Positions 852-29,322 are shown, numbered from the stretch's first letter. The stretch: 64,000 nt of DNA from Catajapyx aquilonaris (GCA_000934665.2 KZ538455.1:1-64000); one strand, 5' to 3'. Numbers and translations are program-made. The notes: generated from the sequence alone by a model not told the origin.

Positions 852-1661
852 TTAGTACATCATTGTCGGACCATAAGCCATCGGTACAGCTTGTACCACA
901 GGGACCATCGCTGGTCGCATCGGGACCATCGCTGGCCGCATCGGCACTAATCCTGGTCTACCGTACATTCCAGGGCCAGCAGCCATCAGGAACCCTGCGG
1001 AAATTAAACATGCTACATGCTTGCATCTTAAATCAGAAGTTTAAAAATAAAGTCATTTGTAAAGAGGTTAGGGTATGAGTAGCCTACTTATACCACTTAA
1101 AGTAAAAGTGAAACTTTATAGTTGATTCCCTCCTGAACTCAGCAATATTATTAGCAACAATTACCGTCAAATGAAACGGGTTTGTGACAATATCCATATT
1201 GCTGATGTCATCTCAAAATAAGAAGGAATTTTTTGTTTGATTTGGAATGACTACACATACCGGTAATATTGAAGATTTTTCTTAATCTGCGTTCATAAAC
1301 ACTGTCCTTCCTCCATTAGGAACAACGGATCTTAATCCATGCAACCAAACTGGCGCAATCTTGTGTGCAGCGTGTGTCGCAATTCGTGCCAACAAAATCA
1401 GTATGATCACTAACTGAAACCACTTTTGTCACACTTGTATAACTCCAAATATTTGAGTGCGTATGTCCCTCAGTTTGATGCAAATTTCTTACTATTTCCG
1501 AGCTCGGTCTCTGCCTCCTCCTCTGGTGTTGGAGCACCAATGGTAGACACCACTAGACATGTAAGCACAAATATCTGCGAAAATATTTTTACAAAATGTT
1601 ATGCTACGGTATGTTATGTGATTATGTACCTTGTACTACTTACTCTTAGTTGTCCACACAT
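852..1661 (-). CDS. Secreted Pro/Met/Val-rich peptide precursor, ~80 aa
   Basis: Exons 1661-1644 (MCGQLR, gtaagt), 1574-1493 (IFVLTCLVVSTIGAPTPEEEAETELGN, phase 1), 994-852 (RFLMAAGPGMYGRPGLVPMRPAMVPMRPAMVPVVQAVPMAYGPTMMY*). Phases compatible; signal peptide plus acidic spacer. An alternative phase-1 acceptor near 1414 would instead give a 4-Cys tail. Confidence 0.7.
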
Positions 1662-1997
1662 TTTAGCAATGAACGGGACAAAAGTGGGGAGGATTGTATT
1701 ATAACCATCGATTTATCTATGACGTATTTGGTTTACTACTTGGAACAATCAATAGTAAACTCAGGAGGGTTTTATATGTGGTTTATACGATAGTGCTAGG
1801 CGCTCAGAGAAGGCGTATTGTGCTATACAGGGTGAAGGGAAACGCGCTCCCAGTCGCCCGCCGAAAAATTCATCTACAGGGTGTTCCAGAAAAAAAATAA
1901 AGCGCAATTAACTTTAAATGTTATTATATTTATTTAAAATCTTAAAGTCACTCTAAAATTGTTACTACAGCGACAAAATAATACTAAAACACTGTAC

Positions 1998-2358
1998 CAG
2001 GGAGCATATACTACATAAGAGGCGCAAACATTCGATTTCCGTTTCTCTCTGTTTGGGACGTTGCCAAGGCTGGCGGCCGTTTTGAAGTGTGGGCAACGTC
2101 AACGAGGTATCAATAGAGTACAGGCAGAAATAGGGTCCGCCATATTTGATTCGCGCGTGTTCTTGTCGTGTAGTTGCCATGGCCGCCAAAACCATCAAAG
2201 ATGGCGGACCTTATTTTTGCCTGTACCCTACTTATACCTCGTTGGCGTTGCCCACACTTCAAAATGGCCGCCAGACTTGGCAACGTCCCAAACAGAGAGA
2301 CGCGAACATCAAAGGCGCCGACAGAAGTCTGCGCCTCTTATGTAGTATATGCTCCCTG
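1998..2358. mobile_element. Foldback-type non-autonomous DNA element (MITE) with long imperfect inverted arms and 7-bp TSD
   Basis: Ends CAGGGAGCATATACTACATAAGAGGCGCA ... TGCGCCTCTTATGTAGTATATGCTCCCTG; arms pair over ~140 nt; ACTGTAC directly flanks both ends (1991-1997 and 2359-2365). Confidence 0.85.
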
Positions 2359-2470
2359 ACTGTACGAATGTGACTGAACGAATGTGACTCCTGACTGTGC
2401 TCCTGACTGTGCTCCTGACTGTGCTCCTGACTGTGCTCCCTGACTGTACGAATGTGACTGTACGAATGTG
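2352..2470. repeat. Minisatellite built from the MITE end/TSD junction
   Basis: (CTCCTGACTGTG)n 12-mers and repeated GACTGTACGAATGT units. Confidence 0.8.
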
Positions 2471-3780
2471 AGAAATTCCTAAGAGTCCAGACTTACGGGC
2501 CACCCTGTTCTGATGCCGCGGGAGGATGTATTTTTAGCTCACGCTAGGAAGCGGAACACCTGATTAGCATATTTCATGGTAGTTGAGCCCCCTTCCACGA
2601 GGTGGTAGAAGCAGTTTGACCCTCATTTCTGTCTAAACTCTAGCGCACCCAGTTCAAAAACCCGTAGATCATCATATGATGCACGTAGGGCCTTAAAGGG
2701 TTAAGAAGCAAAAGTCAGTTCGAGGGCCTCCGAATGAAAGCGAGCCATGGTCATAGAAACTTCCGACTGGGTTTCTCATGGCATCTTATTATACACACAA
2801 GACTAAGACGGTATTGCTGTAGTGTGTTAAATGACACATAGGTAGCTGTTGATTTAATGGCGTGCCCCTGTGGCAGTGTGACTTTGTTCAGAACCCTCCC
2901 TGGCCATAAAGAACGTCCAGTCATACATGGAATAAGCAACAAAATAATGTTGAGCCGCTTGGGGTAATTTCTTTTTGAACAACGGAAGGTGTCGACAGTA
3001 TAATAATACATCGCCGTATACTGTGTACCGAATATGCGTGTCTTTGTCACATGTTACAGCCTGGAGTAAGTTTTAATAGGAAGGTGGCCAGAACGGGTTC
3101 AGTGCCCAGAACGGGTACAACCATCCTATATGTATTTTTTTATTATTTACATAATGGCACAGATTGCTTTAAAATATATTATGTTACGTAATAGAGACGT
3201 CACGGTAAGTCCTGCTGGTCACAATCGCGCCAAAAATTTCTAATCAAAATCGGTTTAGGTTTGTTTTCGGTACGGATTTTGATAATAATTTACAATGCGA
3301 TGGGGGTTCGATATAAAAAAAGCAAAAGGAAGTTTTATACCCTAGTTAGATCTACAAATATTATGTTGGAGTAAGCCATTTAGAGAATTTCAGTTTTAAT
3401 GTTATGGCTCCTAAGTGTTAGGGTTATGCAAGAATTTTTATTAAAAGTTTTACAGCCATAATAAAATTTGCGCAATTTTTAGAGCCGTGCATTTTTCACT
3501 ATTAAGTAACACATCATAAATGCGATTGCTCAATCTTGGTTGTACAGTTTCATGGCTCTTCCAATATTACGGGAAACCAATAGTAATTCATATACATTAT
3601 ACATTGCCATGTTATTAATGTGCCAAAAATCGGCAAAGTGAATAAGAACCAACTGTGAGTGATTAACTAAGTATAGTTACTTTGGTACAGTTAGTCTCTG
3701 AGATTATGTAAAATGTTACATGCATTTTACAAGAAATATTTGGATCCCTCACAACATGGTATTGCTGCCTTATGAAGGTA

Positions 3781-3930
3781 CTCTCGGTCTCAATTAGTTT
3801 CGGCCACCTTATCCTGGTCTTGAAGCAACCCTTCACACACACCCACACCCACACATCCTCGCCATGGAGCCTGTGCGAAGGGTTGCTACAAGACCAGGAT
3901 AAAGTGGCCGAAACTAATTGAGACCGATAG
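3781..3930. mobile_element. 150-bp Tc1/mariner-type MITE
   Basis: ~58-bp inverted arms CTCTCGGTCTCAATTAGTTTCGGCCAC... / ...GTGGCCGAAACTAATTGAGACCGATAG, TA on both sides. Confidence 0.8.
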
Positions 3931-4309
3931 TACATTACAATAATCCAAGTAGTACTACAAATACTCTACTTACCGTTTGATGTTATGGAGCGTCTGTGTT
4001 CTGCACTAACACATCGTTGCATTCTGCATGACCCTCACTATCGCGCGATCGCGCTTTATGTAGTTGTTTATAGCCACCTTTCGATAGAGAGAAGAAAACC
4101 TTTCTTCTTAAGACTAATAACAACCAACCTTTCCCTGAACACTTTTATTTACGGATCTACTTACTAAACACTCATTTTAAGCACGTTACGAACATTCATT
4201 GCAGAAATATTAATTTTCTCTGTGCTCTAGAAACACATGTGTACTTGCATTAGATTCATCATTACGACCTTGCAGGCCTCTAATTACCTCTTAGGACATG
4301 CAGGTCTAT

Positions 4310-4816
4310 TTATTTCCTGCGGCGGCGACCTAACAGAGTTAATACCAGTCCCTTCTTCTTAACTTCTTCCGATGATGAGCTGCTGGATGAACTGCTTCCT
4401 CCTAAAAATCAGAGAAGAGCAAAATAATTAAAAACGTAAAGTTGTAATGTCGACATGAAATGTAAAATTGAATTTTAGAAGAAATTGAATTAATAATTGT
4501 GTAATGTTCGAGTCAATTTTCTGGAGCAATAGCAATACCATTAGAGAAAAAAAATATCTGGAATGCAGCATTTCACATCTTGTAATCATACCAATGTGAT
4601 TCTCATCCCTCTTAGGTCCAGATCTTCCTAAAATATCACAAGTGACTAACCTTTTCGTGTTCCTAATAAGCCCAACAGTGCTGGAGCAGCGGAACACACA
4701 CTAATAGCAATAGCAACCATCAGGAGGGTCAACAACTGCAATGAAAAACCATCGTGTATGGGCACGTAATTAATCGAAGTTACAGTATGCCAAATGCTTA
4801 CCGCCTTGAACGCCAT
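4310..4816 (-). CDS. Small secreted protein with Ser9-Glu-Glu cluster and polybasic tail (63-75 aa)
   Basis: Exons 4816-4802 (MAFKA), 4735-4651 (LLTLLMVAIAISVCSAAPALLGLLGTRK, phase 1), optional 4627-4592, 4401-4310 (GGSSSSSSSSSEEVKKKGLVLTLLGRRRRK*). TATATAAA at 4903-4896. Confidence 0.8.
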
Positions 4817-5151
4817 GCTGGCTTGGTATGGTCTGATCTGAGCAGATCTGTGTCTGTGCGAAGACAAGCTCTGCTTCTTGGCAATATGGTTCCCATTTAT
4901 ATATCTTAGGTCTGATATAATATTTACTATGGACGTCATAGAATTGCTTCGGGGAAAAAGGGTTGAGGCAACACAATGCAGTTTTCTAAAGACTATCTCA
5001 ATTACAGGGTATTGTCATGAGTAGTGACACGTGTTAGCTATTTGTAGGTAAGAATGCAGAAATGTTAAACTAGAAGTTGCGCAGTTCCATTTAATCTAAA
5101 TGTGTGGATTTCAAAGAAAAATATATGAAAATGTGTGCAATACTTGCCTAA

Positions 5152-5533
5152 TTACAAGTTCCAAGGAAACAATCCGGTCCTTCTCTTTATCCCATATAAG
5201 AAAGTGCTCTGAAAAAAGTCATGATTATATACAGTACAAAGTAGGATTGAAATACAGTACAATTTCCCCATAAAAGGGCCCCTAATGGGACAAATAAAAT
5301 AAAATACAAAAATACGGTACAATAATTTAGGTCATTAAATTCCGTACGTACCTGAAGTCCTATTCCCAACAGTCCAGCTTCAGAAATGCACCATGTCATT
5401 GAAACAAATAGAGCTGCAATTTGGACCTTTCAAAAGTTAAAAATGTGCACTAAAGATAATGCTATTTACAGAGCCAGGGTAGCATTGAATATAATTATAT
5501 AACTCCTACCAATATCAGAAGTAGCTTCCACAT
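5152..5533 (-). CDS. Small secreted peptide precursor, 51 aa
   Basis: Exons 5533-5510 (MWKLLLIL, gtagga), 5426-5352 (VQIAALFVSMTWCISEAGLLGIGLQ, gtacgt), 5208-5152 (STFLYGIKRRTGLFPWNL*); all phase 0; TCAGT Inr-like at 5565-5561. Confidence 0.7.
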
Positions 5534-6948
5534 TGCCAGTTTGCGAATACTTATATTATTACTGATGCATGATTCCTTTTGATCGAAGTTTAAAAATACC
5601 TCTTTCATTGTGTTGTACAATGAAGATTTATGATTCAATTGAGAAGTTTTATCACTTTGTTCAAAACACAGTGCCTCTGGCGGGAAAGGAATGAACTTTC
5701 CTAATGACTAAACTAACTTGTTACATTCACTGTGGAATAGTTTTGCTTATGAGTGCATTGAAATCTGTAAGCACTAATTGAACCATATTGATTAGTGGAA
5801 GAACTGATTTATTGATCTCTCAAAAGGACCAGTTTTATTTATCTATTGTTAATTAAGTTTTTTTTAAAAAATTAGGGGCAGAGGTTCATGTCCGTGACAA
5901 TGCTCTTGCTATTACGTTTGTGTCAAATGAATTTATTGCAAAAAGTGGATAATCACGACTGGATTATTTTAGTGTATAGTGTAATGCTAATTATGTAATA
6001 AATTGAGGCGTGGAATAACCAGTTTATGTGAGCACGACAACAAGAGAAAAAGTGCAACAAGCTGTCAAATAAAAAGATGTTGAAGTGACATTGAAAAATA
6101 AATATTATTTCAATGTCTTAACTCCATGAAATATCGTCCTTATGTGCATCGCAGGACGCATATATTGAAAATGAGTCAGATAGGAAATAAAAATGGACAA
6201 TGTTTGCGAAGAAGGTAAAGTGTCGATTTCTATACAATGAACAATGAACAATGAACAATCGACATATCATACATGCCTGTACAATGATCTTGTAAGTAAA
6301 TTGCATTGGGTTACATATTGATGCAATATTCTGTAATATTTTTAGTTACTCTCTATTAATTATTATCTGTACACCCTGTACTTATGTTGATACACCATCG
6401 TTTGCGAAACATGATGATCAATTTGTGGAGCTCGATGGAATTAAATCAGGGCTCATTTCACATTTGAAAATGTGTAATTTTTGAACGCAATCGTAAATAT
6501 CTGCGCCTGACATTGCCATTATTTAAAAAGTGATTTTAATTAGACTTATGATTACAGGTTCAGGAAGTTAGGGTTATTGCGTATTGACTCAGAGCGTTGC
6601 AATAGTCATCTAGTTTTATTAACTGCACGTCAGCTGATATGCCCCCCCTAAAATGACTGGCTTTCATTTACAAATTACTGTACATGATTACACGTATCGC
6701 TTGAACAAAATATCATGTTTTGCATTTATTTTCGTGCATAATTTTATTGTGATGTGTGTAAACTATAAGGAATCTTAATGAAGGATGAAATTAAAGTGAC
6801 ATTTGAAAAATATATTTCATCTTCTGTAATATAACTTTCACAGTAGCCTAGTTGCTTACAGAATTACTGGTTCATTATAAGTAGTTTTTTTTTTCAAAAT
6901 TTGCGTACTTTACAATATCTCGTTTGGTTCTGGGAGTTGTGCATATTT

Positions 6949-8442
6949 TCAGCCTGCTCCAGGATGACTTTGACGCAGGTATTGCAACAGTCGGGTTGCC
7001 TCGTGAGGTTGATCATAAGGGCTGCAATCCAAGACCTGTCCAGTTTTAAAATAATACAATGTACGGTAATAATGACATTCATTTTGACCACCTTCGTTAT
7101 AGTGAGCTCTTTGCCCATACCCATCATAGTAATGAGACTGAGCTTGTGCTTTATGGTCTTTCAATAATTGTTGTAGTCTCATTGCTATGTGTGACCACCT
7201 GTTTTGGGCATCCTCCTCCGGATGATGGTTGGTGTCATCCGGTGCTGTGTTGTCATTGTGTTGATCTCCATCTGTGTAAATAAAAATATCAAGAGCCATG
7301 TGTAATTATTGCACCTAATGATATTACTTACCATGCAAACTTAAATAATTCACTGCATGTTCTGACATCTTATCGTTTTCGCTTGGCCGGTCAGCCTCCG
7401 GATCGTACCAGGAAGATAAATCCGGATGTTGGTAACGTGTGTCTTCCAACTCAGGCTCATACCATTGCGGTAAATCCGGTTCTTGATATTCTGAAGCCCT
7501 TTGTAGCTCATACCATGCTGATTGTTGATCTGATCTTAATGGTGCTGGCTTTTGATATTTTGATTGAGGTTGTTGAGGTTGACCTTTTGATTTGGGGTGT
7601 GGCTCTGGTGCTAACTTATGCTCCTGAAATTTTGTATCCGGTTTTTGATATTCTGAAGTCCTTAGTCGCCCATACCATGCTGATCGTGCACCCGATCTTG
7701 ATGGCTTTTGAGATTCTGAAGTCCTTAGTCGCCCATACCATGCTGATCGTGCACCCGATCTTAATGGCTTTTGAGATTTTGAACGCGGTTGTTGACGTTG
7801 ATCTTTTGATCTGGGGTGTAGCTCTGGTGCTAAATTATGCTCCTGAAATTTTCGTTCCGGTTTTTGATAATCTGAAGCCCTTAGTCGCCCATACCATGCT
7901 GATTGTGGCTTTTGAGATTTTGAACGAGGTTGTTGAGGTTGATTTTTTGATATGGGGTACGGCTCTGGTGATAAATTATGCTCAGGATATTTCAGACTTT
8001 CGGAAGACTGATGTGGCTCATGTAAATTCGGTTTTGTATCGGGTTCTTGCATCTGGTTTCGAAATGCTGAAGTTGCAGCTTCATGTGCATCATGAAATAA
8101 TTCCGTTTGGTGATGCTTGTACGGTTTTGACACTGGTGGATTTGTATGATTCAAACTATGGTTTTTAAACAAAGATTCTGTTGGAACTGGTTGGTTATTT
8201 TCCAACAATGACATGTCCAATGTTTTGGGCGATTCGACACGACCATGTTCATCATATTCAATGTCCGGAGAATACGGTTCTTGAAATTCTTCCGAAGAAC
8301 TCGAAGAAGACTCGTCGTCAAAATAGAAAGCTCCAGTATCGCTGGCGATAAGAGACACTAAAAAGAAAAGCTATTCAAGGTACATAATAATTGCGTAATG
8401 AGGACAGAGTGCAAGTCTTACCAGCACATTTGAGTTCAGCAT
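6949..8442 (-). CDS. Secreted repetitive protein (~460 aa) with N-terminal DDESSSSSSEE and SAWYGRLR / QEHNLAPEP repeats
   Basis: Exons 8442-8422 (MLNSNVL), 8370-7332 (ORF 7324..8358 frame, donor gtaagt, phase 1), 7271-6949 (ORF 6949..7299 frame). Signal MLNSNVLLFFLVSLIASDTGA; clear DNA tandem repeats 7480-7990. Confidence 0.85.
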
Positions 8443-9312
8443 TGTTTGGCACAGCACTTTGACGCGTTACCTTCAGAACTGAATGACATAATATTCTTAT
8501 CCACCTTTTGTGACGCACCACTACAGCTCTATCTGGCAACGCTCTCTGGAACTACTGGATAAAAATATTAATTATAGAAACATGACTGTGACATTTAAGG
8601 AGATTTTGCGACGTCATTGCTATATATAGGGGTATAGGAATTTAATTCGAGTACTTTATGAAAGTGTCAGGCTCGAGGTTTTAATGATTTCTGCATCGTC
8701 TCCTCGGTCTGTCATTCGGGGGGAATCTCATTTTCGCCGTTTCATTAACGCTTCCAAGTGTGACTAATCAGTGGAGGGGTTAAAAATGGGGTCGTTTGGA
8801 CCATCGATTTCAAGTCCAGATATGTCTTTGATGTGGGCGACATTGCAGCAGGAGAGAGAGAGATAAAAAGTACAGGGGGAAATATCAGGTGATGAACAAT
8901 GGTGACTCTTTTATTGTTGTTACTGCAAGGATGTAATGTACAGGCGATTATTGGGGCGTTGAGAATCGTACTGATGGCGTCCTGCAAAAGAGAAAGAAAT
9001 GGAGGGTAAAAAATTTGGCCGAACAAAGCAAGGAATTGCAGATATTCGGGGGCAACTTTGTCTGGTACATGTAATTATACGTGCCATTTCGGTTCATATC
9101 CAACAAGTACTTGATTATTAGATTGAACCTAAGGCTGCTATATACAGCAGAACAATATGTCATAGACTCCTTATAGTCAGAAAATGGTGTCAATTACGAA
9201 TTTTATACAATTATATCTGTCATCAGTTAAATAATTTACACACTTCTAATATTTCCTTGTGATAAAATAAGGGCAAATAAATTAATTTAAATGAAGTCTT
9301 ACTTTGTTATCG

Positions 9313-10250
9313 TCAGTGGTGTCCGTGACCTCCGTAGTGTCCACCACCACCATGACCTCCATAGTGTCCGCCTCCACCATGACCTCCATAGTGTCCGCCT
9401 CCACCATGACCTCCGTAGTGTCCACCACCACCGTGACCTCCGCCGTAGTGTCCACCGCCTCCGTGACCTCCACCATAATGCCCTCCTCCTCCGTGACCTC
9501 CTCCCCCATGACCTCCGCCGTAGTGACCTCCTCCTCCATGACCTCCGCCGTGATGACCACCCCCGCCGTGATCTACCCACATAGCAACAACCAACAATGT
9601 TTAAAAAAAAAACGAATGTCAGACCATCTGATCCAGTTATTGTTACCTATGCAGATCGACAATTCAAACAGCAATTTAGAACCGAACGGTAATGATGGTA
9701 TACGTCCCCATAATTATAATTTAAATGCCGCATAAATTTGGTCCAAACTGTCACTACAGTTTCGGAAATTGCATCGGTTGCGTCACCCCAATCGAACGTA
9801 ACTCATTGGAAACAATATATAATACAATGGGACTTACGCTGCGCTCCGATCATTGCGACACCCAGGCACATCACCAACATCATAACGACCTGTAACATAT
9901 ACATAAATCACATCAGGTTCAAGGGTTTGGATTGTTCTTCCCAGCAACCAATCGAAACAGAAGCACTAGTTGCTGAAGTCAACAGCGAGTCTCTGAATTA
10001 TTGTGTTATTTTATACGACTTTATTATTTTCATAGATTACAAGTTTCATACTCTCAGTAGTCCGGAAGTGGGTTAGGCAGCCGGGACATGCAAACAAACA
10101 TGCGGAGAAACCTTCACGTTTATACTATATGAGAGATTGAAATAGTACCTTAAGCACTTTTTGGTCAGATAATTTCAACTTTCGACTGTACAAAAATCTA
10201 ATAAAATTACACAACCGTCGAATCGCCATACTCACAATTTTGGACGTCAT
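9313..10250 (-). CDS. Secreted Gly/His/Tyr-rich peptide (GGGGHY repeats), 108 aa
   Basis: Exons 10250-10236 (MTSKI, gtgagt), 9889-9838 (VVMMLVMCLGVAMIGAQ, phase 1), 9572-9313 (HHGGGGHHGGGHGGGGHY...GHGHH*). TATATAAG at 10314-10307. Confidence 0.9.
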
Positions 10251-10683
10251 TGTTGCAAGTTCTTTGAGAGGACAGTGTACACAAGGCAAAACCCAACAGG
10301 AAAGGTCTTATATAGTTGGGGTATCCTTGGGTTGGACCAATGGCAAGGCCCGCCAAAGACGCTTCGAAAATGTGTGCAAAAAAAAATATTTGCGAGAGAA
10401 CAGGTTTGCACAGAGGTCATTGAGTGAGTCCCCCGTCACATACTCGTTTTAAGAGGGCCAAAGAGACGGCAAACGTGCGTCATGTCATGCACGTAAAATG
10501 TTGTGAAGCAGGTGAAAAACCAAGACTGGGAAGTTCATGGCTGAATATGCTTAAAAGTTGCGCGCAATTCTTGGAATAATATTGGACGAGGTTATTGAGC
10601 AAACTTACTTTTATTACGTCATTAAGGCGAGGTCGTATTTACATGGACTGTACATTGCAAAATTTTGGGATAAATTTATGATC

Positions 10684-11270
10684 TTAATCGTAGTCTCCAT
10701 GGTGGTGATGGCCACCGCCGTAGTGGCCGTGTCCACCGTAATGTCCATGTCCATGTCCACCATAATGGCCATGTTCATGTCCACCATAATGGCCGTGTCC
10801 ACCATAATGGCCGTGTCCGCCATAATGGCCATGTCCGCCGTAGTGACCGTGGCCATGTCCGCCGTAGTGACCGTGGCCATGCCCGCCGTGATGGTGATGG
10901 CCAAAATCTAAACAGAGCACCAAATGTCAGCAAGTGATTGAAACATATTGTATAATCAGAGCTTACCAGATTCACACATGGTGGGTATGATTAGCAAGAA
11001 TGCTGCAAGTAGTACAACGAAAATCTGAAATAAAAATAATTATTATTACAAGTTTGCAGTAAGGGATTCAAATAGTTTGCATGTTAAATATACAAGTATG
11101 CAAAATATACGAATAAATAAATTCTGAGAATCACGTTCACTTTTGGCGTATATCGGCAACAATGCAATAAGGAAAAGAGTACAGAGCAATGCTCCTAGAC
11201 TTTGCAATTACAAGTTATGCAAAATGGCAAATGCAGAAAAACAACGCATACTCACCAGTTTGGATGCCAT
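10684..11270 (-). CDS. Secreted His/Gly/Tyr-rich peptide (GGHGHY repeats), 98 aa
   Basis: Exons 11270-11256 (MASKL, gtgagt), 11024-10967 (IFVVLLAAFLLIIPTMCES, phase 1), 10907-10684 (DFGHHHHGGHGHGHY...HHHHGDYD*). TATAAA at ~11329-11324. Confidence 0.9.
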
Positions 11271-11689
11271 GTCTGCTGCTGGTTCCTTCCAAAATACAAG
11301 TTTTGGGCTGTTGGCTCCAGATATTTATACTCATCTTTTAGCAATAAAAAATTGTTTTAAGAAGCGTGTTAGACCAGCCTTGGATCCAGTTCTGTTAAAA
11401 TTCCCCCCCCAACTCAAAAAAAAGAAAGAAGTCACGCACTGCCTTCGGTTATTCTGATTTCACTTAGAGCAAAGTGCGTCATTGTTTATTTGGGTTAGAC
11501 GTCACATGGACCAAAGTAATGGTTCCTGCATGACCAATTAACATGGCTTCAAAACAGGTGCGTCAAGAACTAATTTATAGATTGTGGTGAGTTACGTTGT
11601 TTGTCTCAACAACCGGTTTTTATAGAAAACACCTATAACAATAATGCGGTTTGGAAGCGGGAATTCATTTTATGAAAAAAATCGAGTTG

Positions 11690-11770
11690 TGTTCCGACTT
11701 GGAGACGGAACAGCATAATGTTCCGGCTTGGAGACGGAACAGCATAATGTTCCGGCTTGGAGACGGGACA
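11690..11770. repeat. 29-bp tandem repeat, ~3 copies
   Basis: Unit TGTTCCGGCTTGGAGACGGAACAGCATAA. Confidence 0.8.
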
Positions 11771-12841: not shown

Positions 12842-12922
<81 letters not shown>

Positions 12923-14229: not shown

Positions 14230-14661
14230 TTAATGGTGATGGCCATGGTGACCGTGGTGATGTCCGTGGTGATGACCGTGGTGATGGTGGTGACCGTGGT
14301 GATGGTGGTGGCCATGATGGTGGTGATGACCATGGTGGTGATCATGGTGGTGATCGTGATGATGATCGTGATGGTGATCGTGGTGATGCCCATGGTGGTG
14401 GTGATGCCCATGATGATGCCCATGATGGTGGTGATGCCCATGGTGATGACCTGTCACACACACAAATCTACTTAATATTCACCAACATTAGCATGCAATT
14501 ACAGCAATTACCATGATGGTCATGATGATGATGCCCTGCGTTGACCGTCAAGACAACAACGCACAGAATCAGAAGAAAAATCAAAGCCTACAACCAAACC
14601 ACGAATTAGTGTTGTTAGAGTGTGAGTTAACAATAAGCTGACTTACGAGTTTGGACGCCAT
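14230..14661 (-). CDS. Secreted poly-histidine peptide, 103 aa (mature ~81 aa, ~78% His)
   Basis: Exons 14661-14647 (MASKL, gtaagt), 14587-14512 (ALIFLLILCVVVLTVNAGHHHHDHH, phase 1), 14450-14230 (GHHHGHHHHHG...DHHH...GHHH*). TATATAAG at 14772-14765. Confidence 0.9.
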
Positions 14662-15305
14662 TGTTGCTCGGACTTAACTCGACAAAACTACCAGGATCTG
14701 TTCCAAAAACTGCAGGGAACTTCTCTCAGAGGAGATTGATGCCGTCCATCGAGGCACCTCATGTCTTATATACAACCAGGGGGGAATGTTGAGATGGCTT
14801 CCTGATTTTTATCCATGATCGAGCAATTATCACCGGTCCAAATTAGCTCACAGAGTTTGGTTCGGACCGATAGGAAGGCGTAAAATTGGGCGAATTCTTT
14901 TGCGAAAGCGAAAGTGGAGCCTTACTTGGAACGAATGCACGAAAGTTGCGACAATGTTTCTCAAATATCATAATTACAACTTGAGATTTGTTTATTTAAG
15001 CTATTTATTTATTGTGACGGGCCACCTGATGAGTATGCAATTTTCATATACGCACAGCATACAATTCAAGTGTGACTGGTCCATTGAACAGATCCAAATC
15101 AAATTTTTTAAATGTTAACTTTCAGAGTACAGAACACTCGTTTGGTAATTTTACCGGAATTAATCCAATTGCGAGGATTCCTGCCAGTCATTTCTTAACT
15201 AAAACCATGCCCAATTAATTACAACGTTCCCTTTCACTGAGAAGTACTCAACCGAAAGATAACATGACAATTAATTACGTAACACAAGACATGCTTCCGT
15301 GCTTT

Positions 15306-15590
15306 CCCCCCCCCCTTTTTGGGAGCAATTTTATGGTTTTATTTACTTGCACTTTATTTGGTTAGAAACTAACTGTTATTTATGTGAAAATAGCTGCTAT
15401 TGTAATTTAGCACCTTTCCAGCCATACAAACATCGCTTATCACCAGCNCCCCCCCCCCCTTTTTGGGAGCAATTTTATGGTTTTATTTACTTGCACTTTA
15501 TTTGGTTAGAAACTAACTGTTATTTATGTGAAAATAGCTGCTATTGTAATTTAGCACCTTTCCAGCCATACAAACATCGCTTATCACCAG
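15306..15590. repeat. Near-identical ~142-bp tandem duplication split by a single N (probable assembly artefact)
   Basis: Two copies of poly-C TTTTTGGGAGC...TTATCACCAGC with n at 15448. Confidence 0.75.
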
Positions 15591-16321
15591 CCTGCACATA
15601 ACCGCATTTTTTTTCTACCCTCGTAACACAGATAGTCCATTTTGCTCCCATGTTCAACCAGTCTATCTGCTCGGATCTATCTCCCCACTACACACATTAC
15701 ATGCCATCCACCCCTCTACGCACATATAATTGAACAAGGTGCATACAGAGATCATGGATCATCCAGGTTCATACACATTGGCATGGATAAATATTATCGG
15801 GTATCTCCAGAGAANGAGGGGGGGGGGGGTTATATTAAATGGCCCATCAACGTCCCCCCCTTTCCACATAGCCAAGTACAATTCGCTAGTTGATGTTCCA
15901 TTCAATAACACGAGAATCAGCGGTCGCTGGTCTTTGGTCCCAAGGGACTCAGCCTGCCAAATGGCCCATTTAATTTTAATGCCCTAATTTACTTGCCCAT
16001 TCTGGGTAGGAAAGCAGGGGGGAGTATTAAAATACAACGGAATTTCAATAAGCTGCCCAATTAACCGAGGGGGGGGGGGAAGGCTATATTTAAAATATGA
16101 TCGTAAATTATTATTGAACCAATAGATTCACATCACTATTGTTGCTGCCATCAAAAGAGCTGCGAGTGATATGGTAGGAAATAGCCCATCGGTATTGTTG
16201 ACATTTTTTTATTGTACGAAAGCGGGTATAAAAAGGGCGCACAGGCACAGCACAACAAAAACTCTATTGTCAACAATGGTTCTCAACAGCAAAAAGTTGT
16301 TCAGTATTTTTCAATGTCATG

Positions 16322-17053
16322 TTAGTGGTGATTGTGCCCTCCGTGATGACCATGGCCGTGTCCGTGATGGTGATGGTGACCGTGACGGTGATGGTGCCCG
16401 TGCCTGTGGTGGTGGTCGTGGTTGTGTTCGTGGTCGTGATGGTGCTTGTGATTGTGCCCGTGGTGGTGGTGGTGGGTATGACCTGCATTCGCAAAAGGAA
16501 ACAGTTCACTTTCCCCCCCAGCAGTCCTTCAGTGAAAACAAATTTTTTAAAACACAAAAACCTACCGTGATAACTGTGTCCGTGGTGGTGGTGACCCGCA
16601 TTGACCACGACCGAAACCACGCACAGGATGGCCAACAATACCAGAACCTGTAATCACATCAAATGTGCATATACGCATCCATATTTTTGCTAAACACTGA
16701 GTGTTTGTACAGAGAAGTTGCCATTTTAGCATTATATAAATATTAGCTGATAATATCAGCTAATTTCATCAGCTAATCGAAATAGCAGCTGATGAACCCA
16801 GCTCGCTAATTTCATCAGCTAATCGAAATAGTAGCTAATGAAACCAGCTAATATGATCAGCTAATTTCGTCGTTTGATAACCAGTGAAAGTATGCAGCTT
16901 TATGCCAATTGCAGAACTCAGCAAAGTTTCGGACAACACAATGCAACAAGCAGCACTCCAGATTTTCACCTTGATGGAGTGCTGATGGTCCTGTCCGGAA
17001 CCTTATTTTTTGGGAGGGAATTCATGAAAAATTCCTACCGCTTTGGAAGCCAT
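16322..17053 (-). CDS. Secreted His-rich peptide, 85 aa (mature ~63 aa, ~63% His)
   Basis: Exons 17053-17039 (MASKA, gtagga), 16647-16566 (VLVLLAILCVVSVVVNAGHHHHGHSYH, phase 1), 16482-16322 (GHTHHHHHGHNHKHHHDHEHNHDHHHRHG...GGHNHH*). TATATAAG at 17158-17151. Confidence 0.9.
16740..16870. repeat. CAGCTAAT-type minisatellite in intron 1
   Basis: Repeated GCTAATTTCATCAGCTAATCGAAATAG units. Confidence 0.65.
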
Positions 17054-18119
17054 GCTAATGAATCCTCTTGAAGACACTTAAAAAGACACACCGTACTTGA
17101 ACTTCACTGCACTTGATGAGACTGTGCCCTTGTGCAGTCAGCACCGGGCACTTATATAGAAGGCAGTGACTGTGATGAGGTGGTTATGTTCCTCTCCAGT
17201 GAACAATTTGCAGCGCAAGACAAAGGTGGTCACCCCATCCCCGGTCTCTGCTCAGAGAAGGACTGTCCAAAAAAAATGTATGATTTTCGAACTAAGAAAA
17301 AGTCGAGCTGCCTTGCCGTGGGAGAATCTTGTCCTGATGTGACAGTGAAAGTCAGCCGGAACACATTAACTGGACTTGTTCAAAATCCAGCATTTCAGTC
17401 AAATACAGGGTGGTGCGTACTAAAAAATGTTACTGTCTAAGGTCTACATGAAAATTATTTGGCTGGAAAAGAGTGTCAGAAAATCGGACAATAATGAAGT
17501 ACAAAATTATTTGGCTCTTTTCAAGTTGGAAAAATTGCTTCTGAAGGCACATATTTCAATTGAAATTTGAATTAATCCAATACTGAAAGGCAATTTAAAT
17601 TATTTAGAAATTGTAGGCTTACTTTTAACATAAAAAGAAAAAATAATTAAAAATTGAAATCACAAAATGAAAATAATAAAATAAAATAAATCGTGACACA
17701 GAAAATTACAACTAAATTGATTATGAAATTGGAAGATTGAAATTAAAATAATTTTTAAATTCTTTATATTACAATTAAATCATAAACATAAAATTACAAT
17801 GTTGCAATAATTATCATTCAAATATTAATTGAATTTATTACAAAACTTTTGAATTGCGCTTAATTACTCGAATCAAATTCTTTAATAAAAATTCAATTGT
17901 GAGATCAACTAAACTGCTTAATTTAAAATTAAATTTCCTCGATTTAAAATTAAATTTATTAGACAATACCAGTAGTAAAGAAGGGTGTAGATACACTTCC
18001 TGAGTGTGAACTTGGGCAGTGTAACACCCGGTGTCGTTTACAGTACCCAATTTTCTGCATTGCTGAAATGCACCTTAATTACCTGCAATTTTGAGCGTAG
18101 TACTGTTATATACCAACTT

Positions 18120-19730
18120 TCACTTCTTCCTTTTTCTTCCTGCAATTAAAAAGGTTTTTGGGGAGGATTCGGTGGATTAGCAAAACTAAGGCGGTGTCAG
18201 GGTCGGATTTTTTGAATTGTTGGGAGAAAGCAACACTACTTGGTTTCACTTTTCCTCTCTCTTTATTTTTGGTGAGATCATTGGTACCTATAGGTTGTTA
18301 GATCATTTACCTTTCATCAGCGACGATACCCTGTGAGGGGAAGATCAGGATTTAATTGGTCACTGCTGCTATTCTGACCGTTTTGAATGGCCTTACCTTG
18401 GCCGTAACCCCTGTTGCCTCCGGAACCTCTGTTGCTTCCAGAACCTCTGTTACTTCCGGAACCTCTGTTGCCTCCGTATCCTCCGGAGTCGCCGCCGTCT
18501 CCGTATTCGTTTCCGTCTTGGCTTCCGTAATTGCTACCTCCTTGATCGCTGAAACTGTAGCTGTTTTCACTCTCACTGCCCTGTGTTCCGCCTCGTCCGT
18601 TACGTTTCCGGCCGTTTCCGTAACCACCGGAACTTACACCGGATATTCCATAACCAGATCCGGAACTTCCATAACCAGATCCGGAGTTTCCGTAGCCTCC
18701 ATAACCTGATCCAGAGTTTCCGCCGTACCTTCCGTAACCAGAGTTTCCTCCGTAGCCGCCGTAACCAGCAGAATTTCCGCCGTAACCGCTACCCCCGGAG
18801 TTTCCGCCGGAACTAGAACCAGTTCCTGAATTTCCGCCGTAACTAGAACCAGATCCTGAATTTCCACCATAACTAGAACCAGATCCTGAATTTCCACCGT
18901 AACCACCGGACGATCCGCCGTAACTTCCGTAACTTGATCCGGTGTTTCCACCATTTCCGGTGTTTCCGTAACCGGAGTTTCCGTAACTGCTTCCGGTTCC
19001 CCCGCTGTTGCCGCTTCCTACGCTGTTGCCGTAATCGCCTCCGTCGTTTCCCTCGAAGTTGTCGTCATTATCAAACCCGTCTTCTCCGGAGTTTCCGGAG
19101 TTCCCGTTGTTTGTGGAATAACTTGTTCTGGTCCTTCCGGTACGAGTACGACCACGTCCTCGGTTGCCTCCGTCGTCGTCAAATCCTTCGTCAAAGTTTT
19201 CGTCATCACCGTCGTTATTGTTGTTGTTGTTATTGTTGCCTCCACCACCGCCGAAGTCCTGCCCTTCATCATCGTTGTAACCTGACACAAAGAGTCGCCA
19301 ATATTAATTAATTGTTGCCTTGGTGATCTCAAGTTACGAATTGTAATGTCTCATCATTGTTTTTCAATAGTTGAAACAATGCACTGATTGCAGGTGCAAA
19401 ATTTCTCCAATTACAAGTGGTAAAGTGTTAAGCTTACCACCGTCGTTACCTCCATCGTTGCCACCGTCATTGCCACCGTCGTCTCCAAACCCGTCGTCTC
19501 CCTGTCGTCCTGCAAAAATTTATGATTAAACACACAAAAAATTATTAAATTATTATTATAGATTACACCTACCTTGACCTGCCACTGCTCTGCACAACGT
19601 TGCGACAACACATATCAGCAATATCTGAATGAAAAAAAACGCGCTATTAGTCGTCTAATGGTGCAATTAAAAAGGAGTACCCAGCTTGGTGATAATCGAC
19701 TCCACTTACATATCGCACCATATCCGGCAT
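18120..19730 (-). CDS. Secreted Gly/Ser/Asn/Tyr-rich structural-type protein, ~349 aa
   Basis: Exons 19730-19710 (MPDMVRY), 19624-19573 (ILLICVVATLCRAVAGQ), 19509-19438 (GRQGDDGFGDDGGNDGG..), 19281-18397 (ORF 18317..19288 frame), 18139-18120 (GRKRKK*); all phases compatible. TATAAAAG at ~19808-19801. Confidence 0.85.
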
Positions 19731-21309
19731 ATCAAAGCACCAGGCATTAATTCGGCGGATAAAACCCATACAATGTACGGTCCATCGATCTGATCCTTCC
19801 CTTTTATAGTCGACCCATCAATATGACTGGCAGTGCGATTAGCATAAAACTAGTAATTTATAAAATGGAAAGCAATAAGTCAGCCATTTCAGAGGCCATC
19901 TTTTTTTCTCTCTCTTTCTCTCTTCTCCTCTGGTACATATCAAGGCTTTATTGCTGCATTGCAAAGACCTCGAGTCCTTGGATTGTGGCTGTAATCCCAG
20001 CAGATGAAGGAATTTACACGTCGCTGGGATTCCAAACCCCCTTTATCCACATGTGATTGCGTAAATGGGACACCCGTGTCGAGGATCAATGCTTTTGTCA
20101 CGTTTCTCTTTGATTTTCCCTCCGTCGACGACGACGGTTCTGCCTCGACGCCTGTTGAATCTTGACATACAAGAGTTAAGGTAGATTAGCCCTCTCCATC
20201 CATTATATATACTCTCGTAGATAGAAATTTTTTGCGCAGATTTTTCCAGCAATCCAAAAGGTCATGTGCGCTTTATCTATTTCGCACTTTCCAAGTTATT
20301 TCACGTAATTAATTAATTTTTATATTGATGTTTAATTTTTATAGGATTTTTTATTTGATTGTTAATTTTTCAGTTGTAAATGTTTAAATGTTTAAATTTT
20401 TCGTTTTTATTTTGTTTGAATATTTTAATTCAATTTGAAATTTGAAATTCATTTTTTTTGCTTTTGATTTGATTGTTAATTTTTCCGTTATAAATATTTA
20501 AACTGAATTTTTCATTTTTAGTCTGTTTCGCGTGACATTTATCGCAAATTTTGCACTAGTATAAGAGCTATTCTGGCCATGTTTGTTTTAAATTGTAAAA
20601 TGCTCGTTTTATTGCTGCTTTTACAAGTTTTTAACTTCGTTGTCCTGCTGCAATAAGCGATACGGTATACTTGAAAGCTGCGTTGACATAGAATCATAGA
20701 TGATTGGGAGGATGGACCAGCTTTTTAAATGGGTGTTGAAGCTTTTAGGGATCGCCTGAAAACCATTTAAGCGCCTATCTGGTTTGCAACCTATTTTAAT
20801 GCGATTATTTTGTTGACTCTTTTTTTTTCAGTGTTCGTTAATTTGAAGTGAGGCTGCTTTCAAACCCCCCCCCCNCCCCCTCATTTTGCAGGGTAATTCA
20901 GGTGTTTGTAAAAGAAAATAAGCTTTGCCCAGTAATTAATTTTTAATTTTTTTTCAATTTGGGGAGGTCTGGCAAGATTATTAATTTTGCGCGAGTGAGT
21001 GGTGGGAAACATTCTCATTAGAGTATTGATCATTTGCAGTTTCCCGCTGGATTTGTAGACTGGTTGCGACATCTCTGGCCTAAAATTGTTACTGCAATTT
21101 GCTACCTGTAAAAATTTATTGCAAAAATTTAATGATGTGTTTTTAATAGAAAACAAACTGTATACGCATCGGGATCAGTTTTTATATATAGTTTTTTATT
21201 TAACCATTCACAATTAAATAACAAATAAAATATTTGCGAACAGACATTAACAACCAAATTGACTGTGTGACCCGTACTTTTCTCTTTATTAATATAAAAA
21301 ACAGGTCGT

Positions 21310-24300
21310 TTAAAATAATAAGGGCTGAGATTTCTTGCCACCTTTGGTTTCATCCAACTTCGGGTTGTAAACTGTTGTAGGTGGTCCGTGATCTGAAAAT
21401 TAAAATTATTGTAAATTAAAATTGTAATTAAAATAAATTTAGAGCAAATACCTGGATCGTCAGCGTCGTTATCTGCTTTCACTAACTCTCTGTACACATC
21501 CTCGTCAAATTGGTCTCGTTTCTTCTTAGGCACTGGAATACCAAAATATATTATTTTAATGTCATACGCAACGTTACGATGTACTTACGAAAATTGTCCA
21601 ATTGGCGATCAATTGCTTTGGTATATTTCCTCAACGATTCTTCTGATAAGTCATCCTTCCGTCTGTTCCTCGTTCGTTGCTTGGATTCGGCCGAATTGAC
21701 GTCGTCGTTTTCGTAGTCATCGTCGTCCGAATGTCGTCTTCCACCGGTGCGGTACTTTCGGTACGGTTCTATAAATCGAACTCCAGTTATTCCATCTTTG
21801 ATTGGGAATGCAAGGTACGGGTTGTAATAGGAGGAAATAGGAGGGTAAATGATGCGTCGTGGTTGTTGACGGAATATGGGTTGTTGTCCTTCATCATTAA
21901 AATAATTACCGTGTGGTCTTCGGTCGTCTCTCCGCCTGTCGTCGTACCGGTCGTCGTACCGGCGTCGGTCATCATCATAGTGCCTGCGACGAGGCCGGTC
22001 ATCATAGTCACGACGTCGATCGTCGTAACGGTCATCCTCACGACGATCATCGTAGCGTGGACGATCGTCGTCCCTGCGACGGTCATATCTGGGACGATCG
22101 TCATAATCGCGTCGGTCATCGTCGTGGTGTCGGGGACGTTCCTCCTCGTCATGATGCTGAGGACGTTCCTCCTCTTCGTCATGGTGTCGATTGTCTGGAT
22201 GATCTTCCTCCTCGTCGTTCCTGTTAACATCCGGATGCTCCTCTTCCTCTCGTTCGCCTTCAGGATACTCCGGCTCGTCGTTGGATGGAACTTCATCGTC
22301 GTCGTTTTGTCGTCGGTGTCTCGATTCGCTTTCTTTCTCATCCTCAGGCTCTTCGCTTCTTTGTTGACGACGCGTCGACTTTTTGGGTTGCTCTTCCTCC
22401 TCTTCCTCCTCTTCGGTTTCAGGCTCCTTAGGTTTTTCCTCTTCTTTCTCTTTGTCGTCTTCCTCCTCTTCTTCCTCCTCTTTCTGCTTCCGTGATTTTT
22501 TGGCCTTTTTCGCTTTGGATTTTCGACCTTTTGGCTTCTTTTTTACTTTTACTTTCGCAGGCTCCTCTTCCTCCTCTTCCTCCTCGTCATCTGTATTTTT
22601 CTTCTTCTTCTTTTTGACCGGTTCTGTTTCTTCCTCTTCCTCTTCCTCTTCCTCCTCCTCCTCGTACTGTACTTTCGTCTTTTTCTTTGGCTTTGGCTTC
22701 TTCTTCCTCTTTATTTTAATTATTTTAACAACCGGCGGTTCTTCCGGTTCTTCATCTTCGTACTCGTATATGACAGGTGCCGCCGTCGGTTGTGTTGCGT
22801 ATGTCCTAACTGGCTGTGAAATGTACGGAAGTTTAAGACTTTCGTTCTCTGGTATGGCTGAATTTACAGAAGGAGCTTCCTCGTAATTCCTATAAGGCTG
22901 CTGTTGCTGTTGCTGTTGTCGTTGTTGTATCTTACGAATCCTAAGTTTAGGCCTGGTTGTGCTGGCCGCCAGTTGCAACTGTTGATTATTATTAAATTGC
23001 AATTGATGCTGATTATTATTCTGATGCAACTGCAGTTGTTGGTTACCGTCGTAAACCAGAGGTTGTTGGTTATTGTTGTAACTGGTCGGTTGATGGTTAT
23101 TGTTGAACGATGCAGGTTGCTGATTATTGTTAAAATTTGTCTGTTGCTGATTGTTGTTGTACCGCCTAGGTTGCTGCTGGTTATTCCCCCGAATCTGTTG
23201 TTGATTGTTGATACGGAATGGTTGCCTGTTGTTGCGGAAATTTTGCTGATTGTTATTACGGGTCTGCTGCTGCAGAGGCGTCTGGTTGTTATTGTATGGC
23301 AGTGAATTACCCTGCCGCTTGTCATAATCCTGCCTCCTTTGATGGAACCCATTGTAGGCGTTTCTGAGCGCATTGTTGTACTCATTGTTGGACGACTGGG
23401 CTGTTATTGGCTGGCTCTCGTTTTCTGAAACCCCGCCCACTTTTGAGCCAAACTCCAAGCTGGCTATGTGGAAGTCTCGAAAATCATCGAAGTGAACTCC
23501 GTGGTCCAACACTGTGTGATCAGTCTTGGGCGTTACATCGGGTTTGGCAGTGACAATCCTCTGAACGGAAGCAGAAAATGGGTTGATCGAAGCTGAAGTG
23601 ACAGGAGACGATGCAGAGAACGCGAGTGTCGAAGGATAGAACTGGTTGTAACTCTGGCCCGGAAATCTAAAACCAGGTGTTGGATCCCGAAGTCTTGATA
23701 TCACCGACAGTGTGTATGGAAAAGGACCTTCCTGGGGTGGAAGAAGCTGCTGTTGTGGACGTCGTTGAAACTGCTGATTTGGTTGAAACTGTCGAGGTAC
23801 AAAGTGTGTTGGACGAGGTGACAAGTGAGCTGGACGAGGTGACAAGTGAGCTGGACGAGGTGACAAGTGTGCTGGACGAGGTGGAAAATGTGTCGGATTA
23901 ATTGACAAGTGTCCTTGCTGAGGTGACAAGTATGCCGGATTAGGTGACAAGCGTGTTGGATTAGGTGACAATTGGGCTAGATTATGTGACAAGATTGCTG
24001 GATTAAGTGACAGGTGTGCTGGAGTAGGTGGACGAGGTGGAAAGCGTGTTGGATTAGGTGACAAATGTTGGGTTGGACGAAATTGTTGTTGAGGTCTTCT
24101 AGGTGGTTCAGGTGAATATTCATCACCATTGGCAGTAGGCGGGGTGTGAATAAAAGGCTGACGACCTGGTAAGCGCTGACCAAACTCACTGTCTGAAGAA
24201 GGATGTCTTTCATCCACAGTGACCTGTGGTTGATACTCTTCTGACCCCTCACTTGTGACTGGTTCTGGTGGAGGTCGAAACTGTCGATATATTGGAGGCG

Positions 24301-25445
24301 AAGGAGGAGGTGGAGGCAATGGTCTTGGTGGTGGTAAAGGTCGGGGCTGAGGTCTGGTCGCCACTTGACCTTTGACAGGAGGACGGTTCTGTCGACGTCC
24401 ATACTCCGGCTCCACTTTGTCCTCCAGCTTCTTCCTGGCTCCTTCCTCACGCTTTTCCTCTTCCTTCTTTTCCTTCCGTCTTTCTTCAGCCGTGTATATC
24501 TTCTTGGAAGACAAGTGCGACTCTTCAGGTATTGTGTTCTTCTGTAGCTCTTCGTCGTGCTGCTTACTTGTTAAAAATTGACCTCTCCTGTAAAACACTC
24601 TGGGCACTCTTGTCACTTTCTGGCTTCTTGTTGTAGTTCTGACTTCTGTTGTTGTTGCTTCTGTTGTTGTTGAAGTGGTAGTTGCTAGTGTCGTTGCTGG
24701 TGGTGTCGTTGTTGTTAGCACGACTGAAACTGTGGGCAATGCAACATCCAACTCTGTTACCACTGTTAGCAAACTGCTTCTAAAAGGAGTGGACTGCGTT
24801 ACGTAAACTTGGGTATCATCCGATGTTGTAATATCCGGATCACTTTCTAAATCCTTACTCTTCACCATTGGCTTTCCATCAGAAGGGTAAAAATTGGAAT
24901 TATTTCGCGCTGTCAAAACTGGCACAACGTGGTTTCGCGTGTCACTGAACTGGAGCGTGGTGAAGACAACCTCGTTTCTTGGAGTAACTTCCTGTTGAAT
25001 CAACCGTGCCATCCGTCGCGTATTATTATTGACATCCATAAGTGCGTAGGCAGGAACACTCGCGTTACCACTCAGCTGTTCAGGTGACCGACTTTCTGCA
25101 AAAATTTTGAGTGTAAATTACGACCCACTGTGGTTAACAAAACCTCACCTTTTTTAGCCGTTGATCCCCACGTACCAGCTAAGATAAGGCTGACCAAGCA
25201 TAGCCACAGGAGCTGTAATTGCAAAATTGTCACGTACTTATTGCACACAGGTGACAAAACGAAAGTGCGATGTAATTTTACGCTAAAAGACAATTTTACT
25301 CACTTGCACATTTTATAATGCGATTAACATAATGAGTATTGGCCTGATTGGATTATCCTATTGTAATGTTTACTTTCAGAATAAGAAGGGGCTTCAACTA
25401 CACCCAAATCCTCACCCATTTGGTCAGCACACAGATTGCAGACAT
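21310..25445 (-). CDS. Large secreted intrinsically disordered block-copolymer-like protein, ~1254 aa
   Basis: Exons 25445-25416 (MSAICVLTKW), 25212-25149 (LLWLCLVSLILAGTWGSTAKK), 25095-21589 (includes ORF 21551..25039), 21532-21452, 21392-21310 (..GGKKSQPLLF*); canonical GT-AG, phases compatible. TATAAAAG at 25547-25540. Confidence 0.9.
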
Positions 25446-29173: not shown

Positions 29174-29175
<2 letters not shown>

Positions 29176-29245
<70 letters not shown>

Positions 29246-29322
29246 AGGGAAACTCTGGACATTGACGGTTCTAAAAATATTGTCCAACATATAGGGAGGT
29301 GTCCAACTTGACAGGTTTCACT

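Follow-up and report, generated by a model that had tools for sequence, protein, structure and literature searches.

A tandem cluster of nine predicted secreted low-complexity protein genes in Catajapyx aquilonaris, tentatively read as cuticle-type matrix proteins

Many cuticular proteins of the CPR family are encoded in compact tandem arrays in Anopheles gambiae, where an intron interrupts the signal-peptide region in 86% of the intron-containing genes, coding first exons measure 3-36 nt, and a TATA box together with an initiator was reported for 93% (PMC2259329). The Gly-rich CPG cuticular proteins have no conserved domain, and a cross-linking role has been suggested for their GGY repeats (PMC12426002). 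Histidine-rich examples have been described as well: cuticular proteins of silkworm scales contain up to 45% His and give films with laccase-2 and catechols (PMC8062583), and Tribolium TcCP30, made up of Glu (36%), His (21%), Arg (19%) and Gly (16%), lacks the Rebers-Riddiford (R&R) motif and is cross-linked by laccase-2 (PMC4440208). Here we describe a locus of comparable plan in a stretch of 64,000 nt from Catajapyx aquilonaris (GCA_000934665.2 KZ538455.1:1-64000; hereafter the window; 33-47% GC), in which nine gene models, G1-G9, all on the minus strand, extend from the stop codon of G1 at 852 to the ATG of G9 at 25445.

Like the Anopheles CPR arrays, this cluster consists of co-oriented, compact tandem genes with TATA boxes, very short first exons and an intron within the signal peptide, and it shares with insect cuticular arrays at large (CPR, CPG and low-complexity proteins) a Gly/Tyr/His-rich low-complexity make-up essentially free of Cys. 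It differs from them in having no Rebers-Riddiford or other cuticle domain found by Pfam, no sequence relative and a far higher His content, and in being described here from its genes. Since the gene plan is that of insect cuticular-protein arrays, an ordinary cuticle matrix is likelier than an exotic biomaterial. By analogy, we tentatively regard the cluster as encoding matrix proteins, restricted to this lineage, of an extracellular material that is sclerotised or hardened with metal, a reading to which we assign a probability of roughly 40%. The kind of gene is known, clusters of low-complexity secreted genes being ordinary in arthropods. What is unusual is a His content of 63-78%, a literal GHGxY array in an arthropod, casein-like Ser-Glu-Glu tracts, and the use of one 5' scaffold for dissimilar products. 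A limited literature search turned up no described counterpart of this gene family.

Gene plan and coding evidence

On the minus strand, the interval 852-25445 holds eight long open frames whose amino-acid entropy is very low, and several short hydrophobic frames. Models were obtained by reading this strand by eye and then enumerating the GT-AG combinations that keep a single open frame from ATG to stop. All junctions are predicted from the DNA sequence; in-frame alternatives exist for G2 (three), G6 (two), G8 (four) and G9 (two), and G1 admits only one open combination. The resulting plan is uniform. In each of the nine genes, a first exon of 5-10 codons is followed by a phase-0 intron and by a second exon encoding a hydrophobic signal-type stretch, with a core and a plausible cleavage site, so that the intron splits the signal peptide; all 12 later introns are in phase 1. 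Introns span 51-498 nt and intergenic gaps 433-2959 nt. In 9/9 genes, the ATG is preceded by a TATAWA box at a distance of 59-186 nt, the background being 355 of the 2293 ATGs in the window (15.5%) with such a box at equal distance. AATAAA or ATTAAA is found within 400 nt of the stop codon in eight genes, G4 being the exception. Eight of the mature proteins have no Cys, and the only two Cys residues of the cluster are encoded in the last exon of G3.

A preliminary description of this stretch, made from the sequence, had given the same outer limits and the same orientation, together with a first exon of 4-10 codons, a phase-0 intron, a signal exon and, in most genes, a TATA box. These features were recovered in all nine genes, and every composition class that it named is present. 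It had counted about 11 genes, of which nine could be built; a search with loosened criteria for additional genes built in this way yielded none within 852-25445 that has a TATA box.

The coding nature of these frames has to be weighed with care, as imperfect coding minisatellites with periods of 9-63 nt occur in every gene (Tandem Repeats Finder, TRF) and each mature region overlaps tandem repeats. This overlap, the lack of relatives in protein searches and the missing poly-A signal of G4 would be expected if the models were chance frames over non-coding minisatellites, or decayed pseudogenes. Such an origin would leave unexplained a TATA box at the right distance, an identical intron-phase pattern and a signal-type exon in 9/9 genes, and a poly-A signal in 8/9. 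The way in which the repeats are written also argues against it. In five of the six repeat-encoding last exons examined (G4-G8; not G2), the third codon position shows the highest nucleotide entropy; the His codons CAT and CAC are mixed, Gly uses all four codons, and Ser runs combine AGY with TCN. Judged from the sequence, this third-position variation and codon mixing is the product of selection for amino-acid composition, not of a slipping microsatellite. Finally, frames of 328, 348 and 1188 codons are open in DNA of about 40% GC, and at this base composition the 1188-codon frame of G9 cannot stay open by chance. We consider the nine models very probably real genes and an artefact extremely unlikely.

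Table 1. Gene models of the cluster, with exons in coding order and position of the TATA box
Gene	Span (strand)	Exons	TATA box	Predicted product
G1	852..1661 (-)	1661-1644, 1574-1493, 994-852	1776 (TATAAA, 115 nt upstream of ATG)	Pro/Met-rich secreted peptide, 80 aa
G2	4310..4816 (-)	4816-4802, 4735-4651, 4401-4310	4903	63-aa precursor, signal peptide
G3	6949..8442 (-)	8442-8422, 8370-7332, 7271-6949	8628	460 aa
G4	9313..10250 (-)	10250-10236, 9889-9838, 9572-9313	10314	Gly/His/Tyr peptide, 108 aa
G5	10684..11270 (-)	11270-11256, 11024-10967, 10907-10684	11329	Gly/His/Tyr peptide, 98 aa
G6	14230..14661 (-)	14661-14647, 14587-14512, 14450-14230	14772	poly-His peptide, 103 aa
G7	16322..17053 (-)	17053-17039, 16647-16566, 16482-16322	17158	poly-His peptide, 85 aa
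G8	18317..19730 (-)	19730-19710, 19624-19573, 19509-19438, 19281-18317	19808	acidic Gly/Ser/Asn/Tyr protein, 369 aa
G9	21310..25445 (-)	25445-25416, 25212-25176, 25095-21589, 21532-21452, 21392-21310	25547	modular polyampholyte, 1245 aa

The predicted products (Table 1) fall into strikingly different compositions. G4 to G7 are the His-rich members. The mature part of G4 (86 residues) is 66% Gly, 26% His and 8% Tyr, and that of G5 (74 residues) is 43% Gly, 38% His and 12% Tyr, with seven GHGxY motifs in which x is always His; AATAAA follows 69 nt beyond the G5 stop codon. In G6, 81 mature residues comprise 78% His, 16% Gly and 6% Asp, with 26 CAT and 31 CAC codons, and in G7, 63 mature residues comprise 63% His and 17% Gly; an ACAGT initiator-like site lies 33 nt on from the TATA box of G7. 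G8, with an isoelectric point (pI) of 4.2, 35% Gly and intron phases 0, 1 and 1, has an Asp-rich start and 19 GGY/GYG motifs.

The remaining members are more heterogeneous. G1 (intron phases 0 and 1) has an acidic pro-piece followed by a cationic Pro/Met-rich part, the mature portion containing 18% Pro, 15% Met and no Cys. In G2, a run of nine Ser, written in both AGY and TCN codons, is followed by Glu-Glu and a Lys/Arg tail, which gives a pI of 11.8 and seven dibasic sites. G3 carries a run of six Ser and then Glu-Glu beside the signal peptide, with internal repeats of 63 nt and 219 nt. G9 is built of blocks rich in Thr (mucin-like), Pro, Asn/Gln, Glu/Lys and Asp/Arg, with a charged fraction of 0.34 and a net charge per residue of -0.01. 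Single-sequence AlphaFold modelling gave no confident fold for its N-terminal 165 aa (predicted local distance difference test, pLDDT, 35.6) and a weak alpha/beta model for the last exon of G3 (pLDDT 59.9; predicted template-modelling score, pTM, 0.39). The earlier statement that the cluster encodes no folded domain holds as far as Pfam families are concerned, Rebers-Riddiford included, and has to be qualified for this G3 exon.

Further open frames accompany the models. A possible 3-codon first exon for G4 (10041-10049, minus strand), with a TATA-like box 75 nt upstream, lies within intron 1 of the model adopted here and could be due to chance or to the use of an alternative promoter. A 294-aa frame at 7284-8168 (+), which runs antisense to G3 in its repeat-bearing part, is most likely a by-product of the coding-strand repeats and not a gene. 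Just outside the span, at ~26280-26346 (-), a 22-codon frame has a signal-peptide-like start and then a stop, with no splice donor; it could be the relic of a further cluster member.

Kinship within the cluster and database searches

A first-exon pattern, M-A-S-K-x followed by GT, has seven matches in the window against 0.74 expected, and five of the seven are the ATGs of G2, G4, G5, G6 and G7, whose common form is M-A/T-S/F-K-x. G5 (MASKL) fits exactly, G6 and G7 read MASKL and MASKA, G4 (MTSKI) has one mismatch and G2 has two. In exon 2, G6 and G7 are identical at 44 of 76 nt (58%), the best pair among eight signal exons, and their residues agree ahead of the first His run and on into it; on this sequence evidence, the two are paralogues. 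The first exon common to five genes points to one gene family, to which G2, G4 and G5 probably belong along with G6 and G7. The remaining pairs of signal exons share no more than 28-54% identity, a level that cannot prove descent, and common descent of all nine genes is therefore not established.

Outside the TATA box, the alignment of the nine upstream regions is poor, and no k-mer is common to them beyond what random windows show. Motifs for kappaB, GATA, FTZ-F1 and the EcR half-site show no enrichment in them. The preliminary description had proposed one co-regulated toolkit for a single structure; with only the TATA box shared upstream, this proposal is not supported.

To look for relatives, hmmscan was run against Pfam with eight cluster exons and then with 5-6 further pieces. 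The eight exons matched no family, and the Rebers-Riddiford consensus of CPR proteins (Chitin_bind_4) was not found in them. No match bore on the CPLC families (CPLCG, CPLCW, CPLCP and CPLCA), whose hallmarks are two invariant Gly, an invariant Trp, a Pro-rich region and a retinin-like domain, of which this search covers the retinin-type domain if Pfam includes it. The further pieces gave only a sub-threshold match to Endotoxin_mid (E 0.018, 15.1 bits, cut-off 22), which we regard as noise. Word-seeded HMMER comparison with 5.8 billion proteins retained 0 of 3140 candidates for the main exon of G3 and 0 of 3661 for the last exon of G5. Among PDB sequences, G5 had no match, and the last exon of G3 had one sub-threshold match to collagen IV (E 0.0069). 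The best ESM Atlas scores, 0.79 and 0.86, fell on unnamed, mostly bacterial clusters and were uninformative. Metagenome scans with G9 and with G3 found no relative.

An exhaustive phmmer search of 1.84 billion representatives returned 26 matches to the main exon of G9 at E <= 0.001, of which 23 lie on a Pro/His/Leu/Ser heptad block and three on the Asn/Gln block. Three of the 26 were inspected, all of them unrelated proteins with similar repeats, and the matches were rejected as repeat artefacts. The composition correction of HMMER makes these searches insensitive for G4-G7; G3 and G9, which contain long stretches free of repeats, are likewise without relatives. As in the earlier characterisation, the genes look secreted, low-complexity and lineage-restricted, the last in keeping with the lack of relatives in these searches. 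The accompanying suggestion that they had been missed by annotation fits a 1188-aa open frame with no counterpart among 1.8 billion representatives, the other explanation being that such proteins are absent from the databases.

Candidate functions of the encoded proteins

Several cuticular proteins resemble the cluster members in composition. CPG proteins are defined as secreted proteins with GXGX/GGXG and GGY repeats (PMC12426002); G8 has these features, and G4 and G5 carry GXGX with X = His, a match of composition only that is no proof of common descent. BmorCPR152 (45% His) and TcCP30, compared here by description only, are likewise secreted, highly polar, His-rich and of low complexity; both act as laccase-2/catechol substrates in cross-linking. 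In its make-up, TcCP30 is similar to the Glu/Asp/Arg/His block of G9 (residues ~960-1080), also in having no R&R motif. BmorCPR152 is by name a CPR (R&R) protein, unlike G6 and G7, which reach 63-78% His in mature parts of 63-81 residues.

Arthropod cuticle is hardened by quinone tanning. In the matrix reading that we prefer, whose functional steps are all deduced from composition and gene architecture, nine arthropod genes restricted to their lineage and arranged in tandem would supply secreted, essentially Cys-free, disordered proteins. The mature parts of G6 and G7, and probably those of G2, G4 and G5, would have been replaced by differing, expanding coding minisatellites. The His-rich G4-G7 would offer imidazoles for quinone cross-links of the laccase-2 type, for Zn/Cu coordination, or for both, and at about pH 6-7 may pass from a soluble polycation to a condensed phase. 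G8 and G5, rich in Gly and Tyr, would contribute GGY and GHGxY motifs for Tyr-based cross-linking and phase separation, with the Ser-Glu-Glu tracts of G2 and G3 and the polyampholyte G9 as charged partners. Given their composition, metal binding by the peptides of 63-78% His is plausible.

A number of observations weigh against this assignment. The cluster is known from genomic sequence alone, Pfam found no chitin-binding or other cuticle domain in its exons, and no common upstream motif favours co-regulation. A His content of 63-78% is far above that of the cuticular proteins in the literature examined. G1, with its acidic pro-piece, and G2, in which dibasic sites number seven, bear more resemblance to precursors of processed peptides. 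Genes other than those of the cuticle also have short first exons (PMC2259329), and fly salivary secretomes hold very similar mixtures of proteins (PMC3285218, PMC2853526).

The products could alternatively form a glandular secretion cocktail, such as saliva, a silk or cement adhesive, or material of an accessory gland or eggshell. Disordered proteins of opposite charge would then condense by complex coacervation, or the His-rich peptides would chelate metals and, for example, silence secreted metalloproteases or starve microbes. The charges are indeed complementary, G2 (pI 11.8) being basic, G8 (pI 4.2) acidic, and G9 a polyampholyte of neutral charge that includes a mucin-like block rich in Thr. 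A first exon that is conserved beside mature parts that are hypervariable, a combination present here, is typical of fast-evolving secretions. Black-fly and tsetse saliva is reported to contain lineage-specific families of Gly-His-rich, H-rich acidic, poly-Q mucin and small basic proteins, histidine-repeat peptides being common in sialotranscriptomes according to the Glossina paper (PMC3285218, PMC2853526), and poly-His/poly-Gly peptides of vipers inhibit metalloproteinases by chelation (PMC9472272). The dipteran families show the same low-complexity mixture but are defined by gland expression, the present cluster by its genes; the Gly/Tyr repeats and the absence of Cys are also no less suited to proteins of cuticle type. 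We hold a glandular origin to be possible, if somewhat unlikely.

An antimicrobial or antifungal role has also been considered for the small members, namely the Gly/His-rich G4-G7, the Pro-rich G1 and G2 as a precursor processed at dibasic sites, with G3, G8 and G9 as unrelated neighbours. Gly-rich and His-rich linear peptides are recognised classes of insect antimicrobial peptides (AMPs; tenecin 3, histatin-like; PMC2853521). Tenecin 3, holotricin 3 and the hisnavicins are, like G4-G7, small secreted linear Gly/His-rich peptides, with no sequence match to the cluster members. The hymenopteran hisnavicins are His-rich and genomically clustered, and their annotation overlaps with that of cuticle proteins; sawfly hisnavicins have a conserved 62-aa motif, to be compared with mature Gly/His(/Tyr) repeats of 63-86 residues in G4-G7 (PMC10542623). 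The acidic pro-piece preceding a cationic Pro-rich part in G1 and the dibasic sites of G2 would suit such peptides too. However, this explanation does not account for members of 369, 460 and 1245 aa with the same gene plan, and the peptides of 63-78% His (G6 and G7; pI 7.0-7.8) are near neutral at pH 7. The kappaB/GATA sites near the TATA box that mark inducible AMP genes of insects were not found in excess: nine 500-nt upstream regions contain three kappaB-like sites against 1.9 expected and six GATA sites against 7.5, a result that counts only weakly because both consensus sequences derive from insects. An antimicrobial function for the small members therefore appears unlikely.

Proteins of other phyla offer further analogies. 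Squid beak HBP-1/2 and the Nereis jaw protein Nvjp-1 have a Gly/His/Tyr composition like that of G4 and G5, which would be convergence at most. In HBP peptides, at least four tandem GHGLY motifs suffice for pH-triggered phase separation (PMC6884462); G5 exceeds this number with its seven GHGxY motifs, and G4, G6 and G7 have none. The position x is Leu, Val or Pro in the squid proteins and His in G5. The squid GHGxY analogy drawn in the preliminary description is thus literal for G5. A worm jaw protein with ~27% His is linked to Zn, and the heavy-element tools of arthropods contain up to ~18-20% Zn by mass, mainly bound to His nitrogen; this load exceeds what a 27%-His protein would hold with 3-4 His per Zn and needs about one His per Zn, and the available part of the report names no arthropod Zn-binding tool protein (PMC8410824). 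For G6, two His to each Zn would give a computed Zn capacity of ~17% by weight, and a single His to each Zn one of ~29%. G4-G7 might constitute the long-sought Zn-binding matrix of such tools (mandible teeth, claws, stings or fangs), the other members acting as condensing, space-filling partners co-secreted into the tool tip before metal loading, an assignment that we consider very unlikely.

The vertebrate SCPP cluster (caseins, histatins and enamel proteins) has introns that are all in phase 0 and Ser-x-Glu after the signal peptide, and it descends from SPARCL1. It is similar to the present cluster in combining tandem genes for secreted disordered proteins of varied composition with a common 5' plan, and SCPP-like Ser-x-Glu tracts of phosphorylation type stand beside the signal peptide in G2 and G3. 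The lineages are unrelated, however, and here only intron 1 is in phase 0, the 12 later introns being in phase 1; no SPARC-like parent gene occurs in the window. The genes do not belong to the SCPP family, and the likeness is an analogy only.

The SKIP neighbour, other features of the window and significance

The only recognisable neighbour of the cluster is a SAM-domain exon at 34899-35441 (+), divergent from it (Pfam SAM_1, E 5.5e-16). Of the best 120 matches listed, 119 are named insect SKIP or SAM-SH3 proteins and one is unnamed; the best SKIP match has 64% identity over 175 residues. By sequence, this is the first coding exon of arthropod SKIP, in agreement with the preliminary description, which had called the adjoining gene SAMD5/SKIP. 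No later SKIP exon was found in the window, which implies a first intron of more than 28 kb. In a tree of SKIP exon 1, built with 21 of the 120 listed matches that were hand-picked to cover three orders, the window sequence forms a long branch that falls outside the Hemiptera, the Coleoptera and the Lepidoptera. Judged from this neighbour, the DNA is that of an arthropod, probably a hexapod or another pancrustacean whose lineage is poorly sampled or evolves fast. The preliminary description had recognised neither the arthropod origin nor the likeness of the gene plan to insect cuticular-protein arrays. A marine-invertebrate reading of the cluster (mollusc or annelid jaw, byssus) was dropped because the neighbour is an arthropod SKIP. 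No Pfam family was detected in 24 other open reading frames of the window, and Rfam and tRNA scans of the window found nothing.

Two pairs of inverted repeats lie between G1 and G2, at 2031-2150/2194-2313 (120-nt arms, 88% complementary) and at 3775-3839/3872-3936 (65-nt arms, 92% complementary). In sequence, both look like elements of the miniature inverted-repeat transposable element (MITE) type, and they account for mirror-image open reading frames on both strands of this interval. A 144-nt unit occurs twice at 15306-15592, with 99% identity, around a single N. Single Ns are also present at 392, 15815, 20875, 36591, 40522 and 57143 in addition to this one at 15448, with an N run at 62279-62386, and poly-C/poly-G runs adjoin single Ns. 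The duplication and the runs are probably artefacts of assembly or polishing, none of which touches the gene models. Long trinucleotide microsatellites, e.g., (TAA)26, occur at 12843-12920, ~29167-29360 and ~61740-61780; the genome seems to be rich in simple repeats.

Peptides predicted to be secreted, with His making up two-thirds to three-quarters of their residues, and encoded beside Gly/Tyr-rich, phospho-Ser-type and polyampholyte partners, would be direct candidates for the Zn-binding component of arthropod tools, and they would be attractive as templates for pH- and metal-switchable materials. If the products are ordinary cuticle, saliva or defence proteins, the cluster would present a single scaffold of promoter, first exon and signal exon that has been re-used for radically different repeat-encoded products. 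The locus illustrates a type of gene that is overlooked by homology-based annotation.

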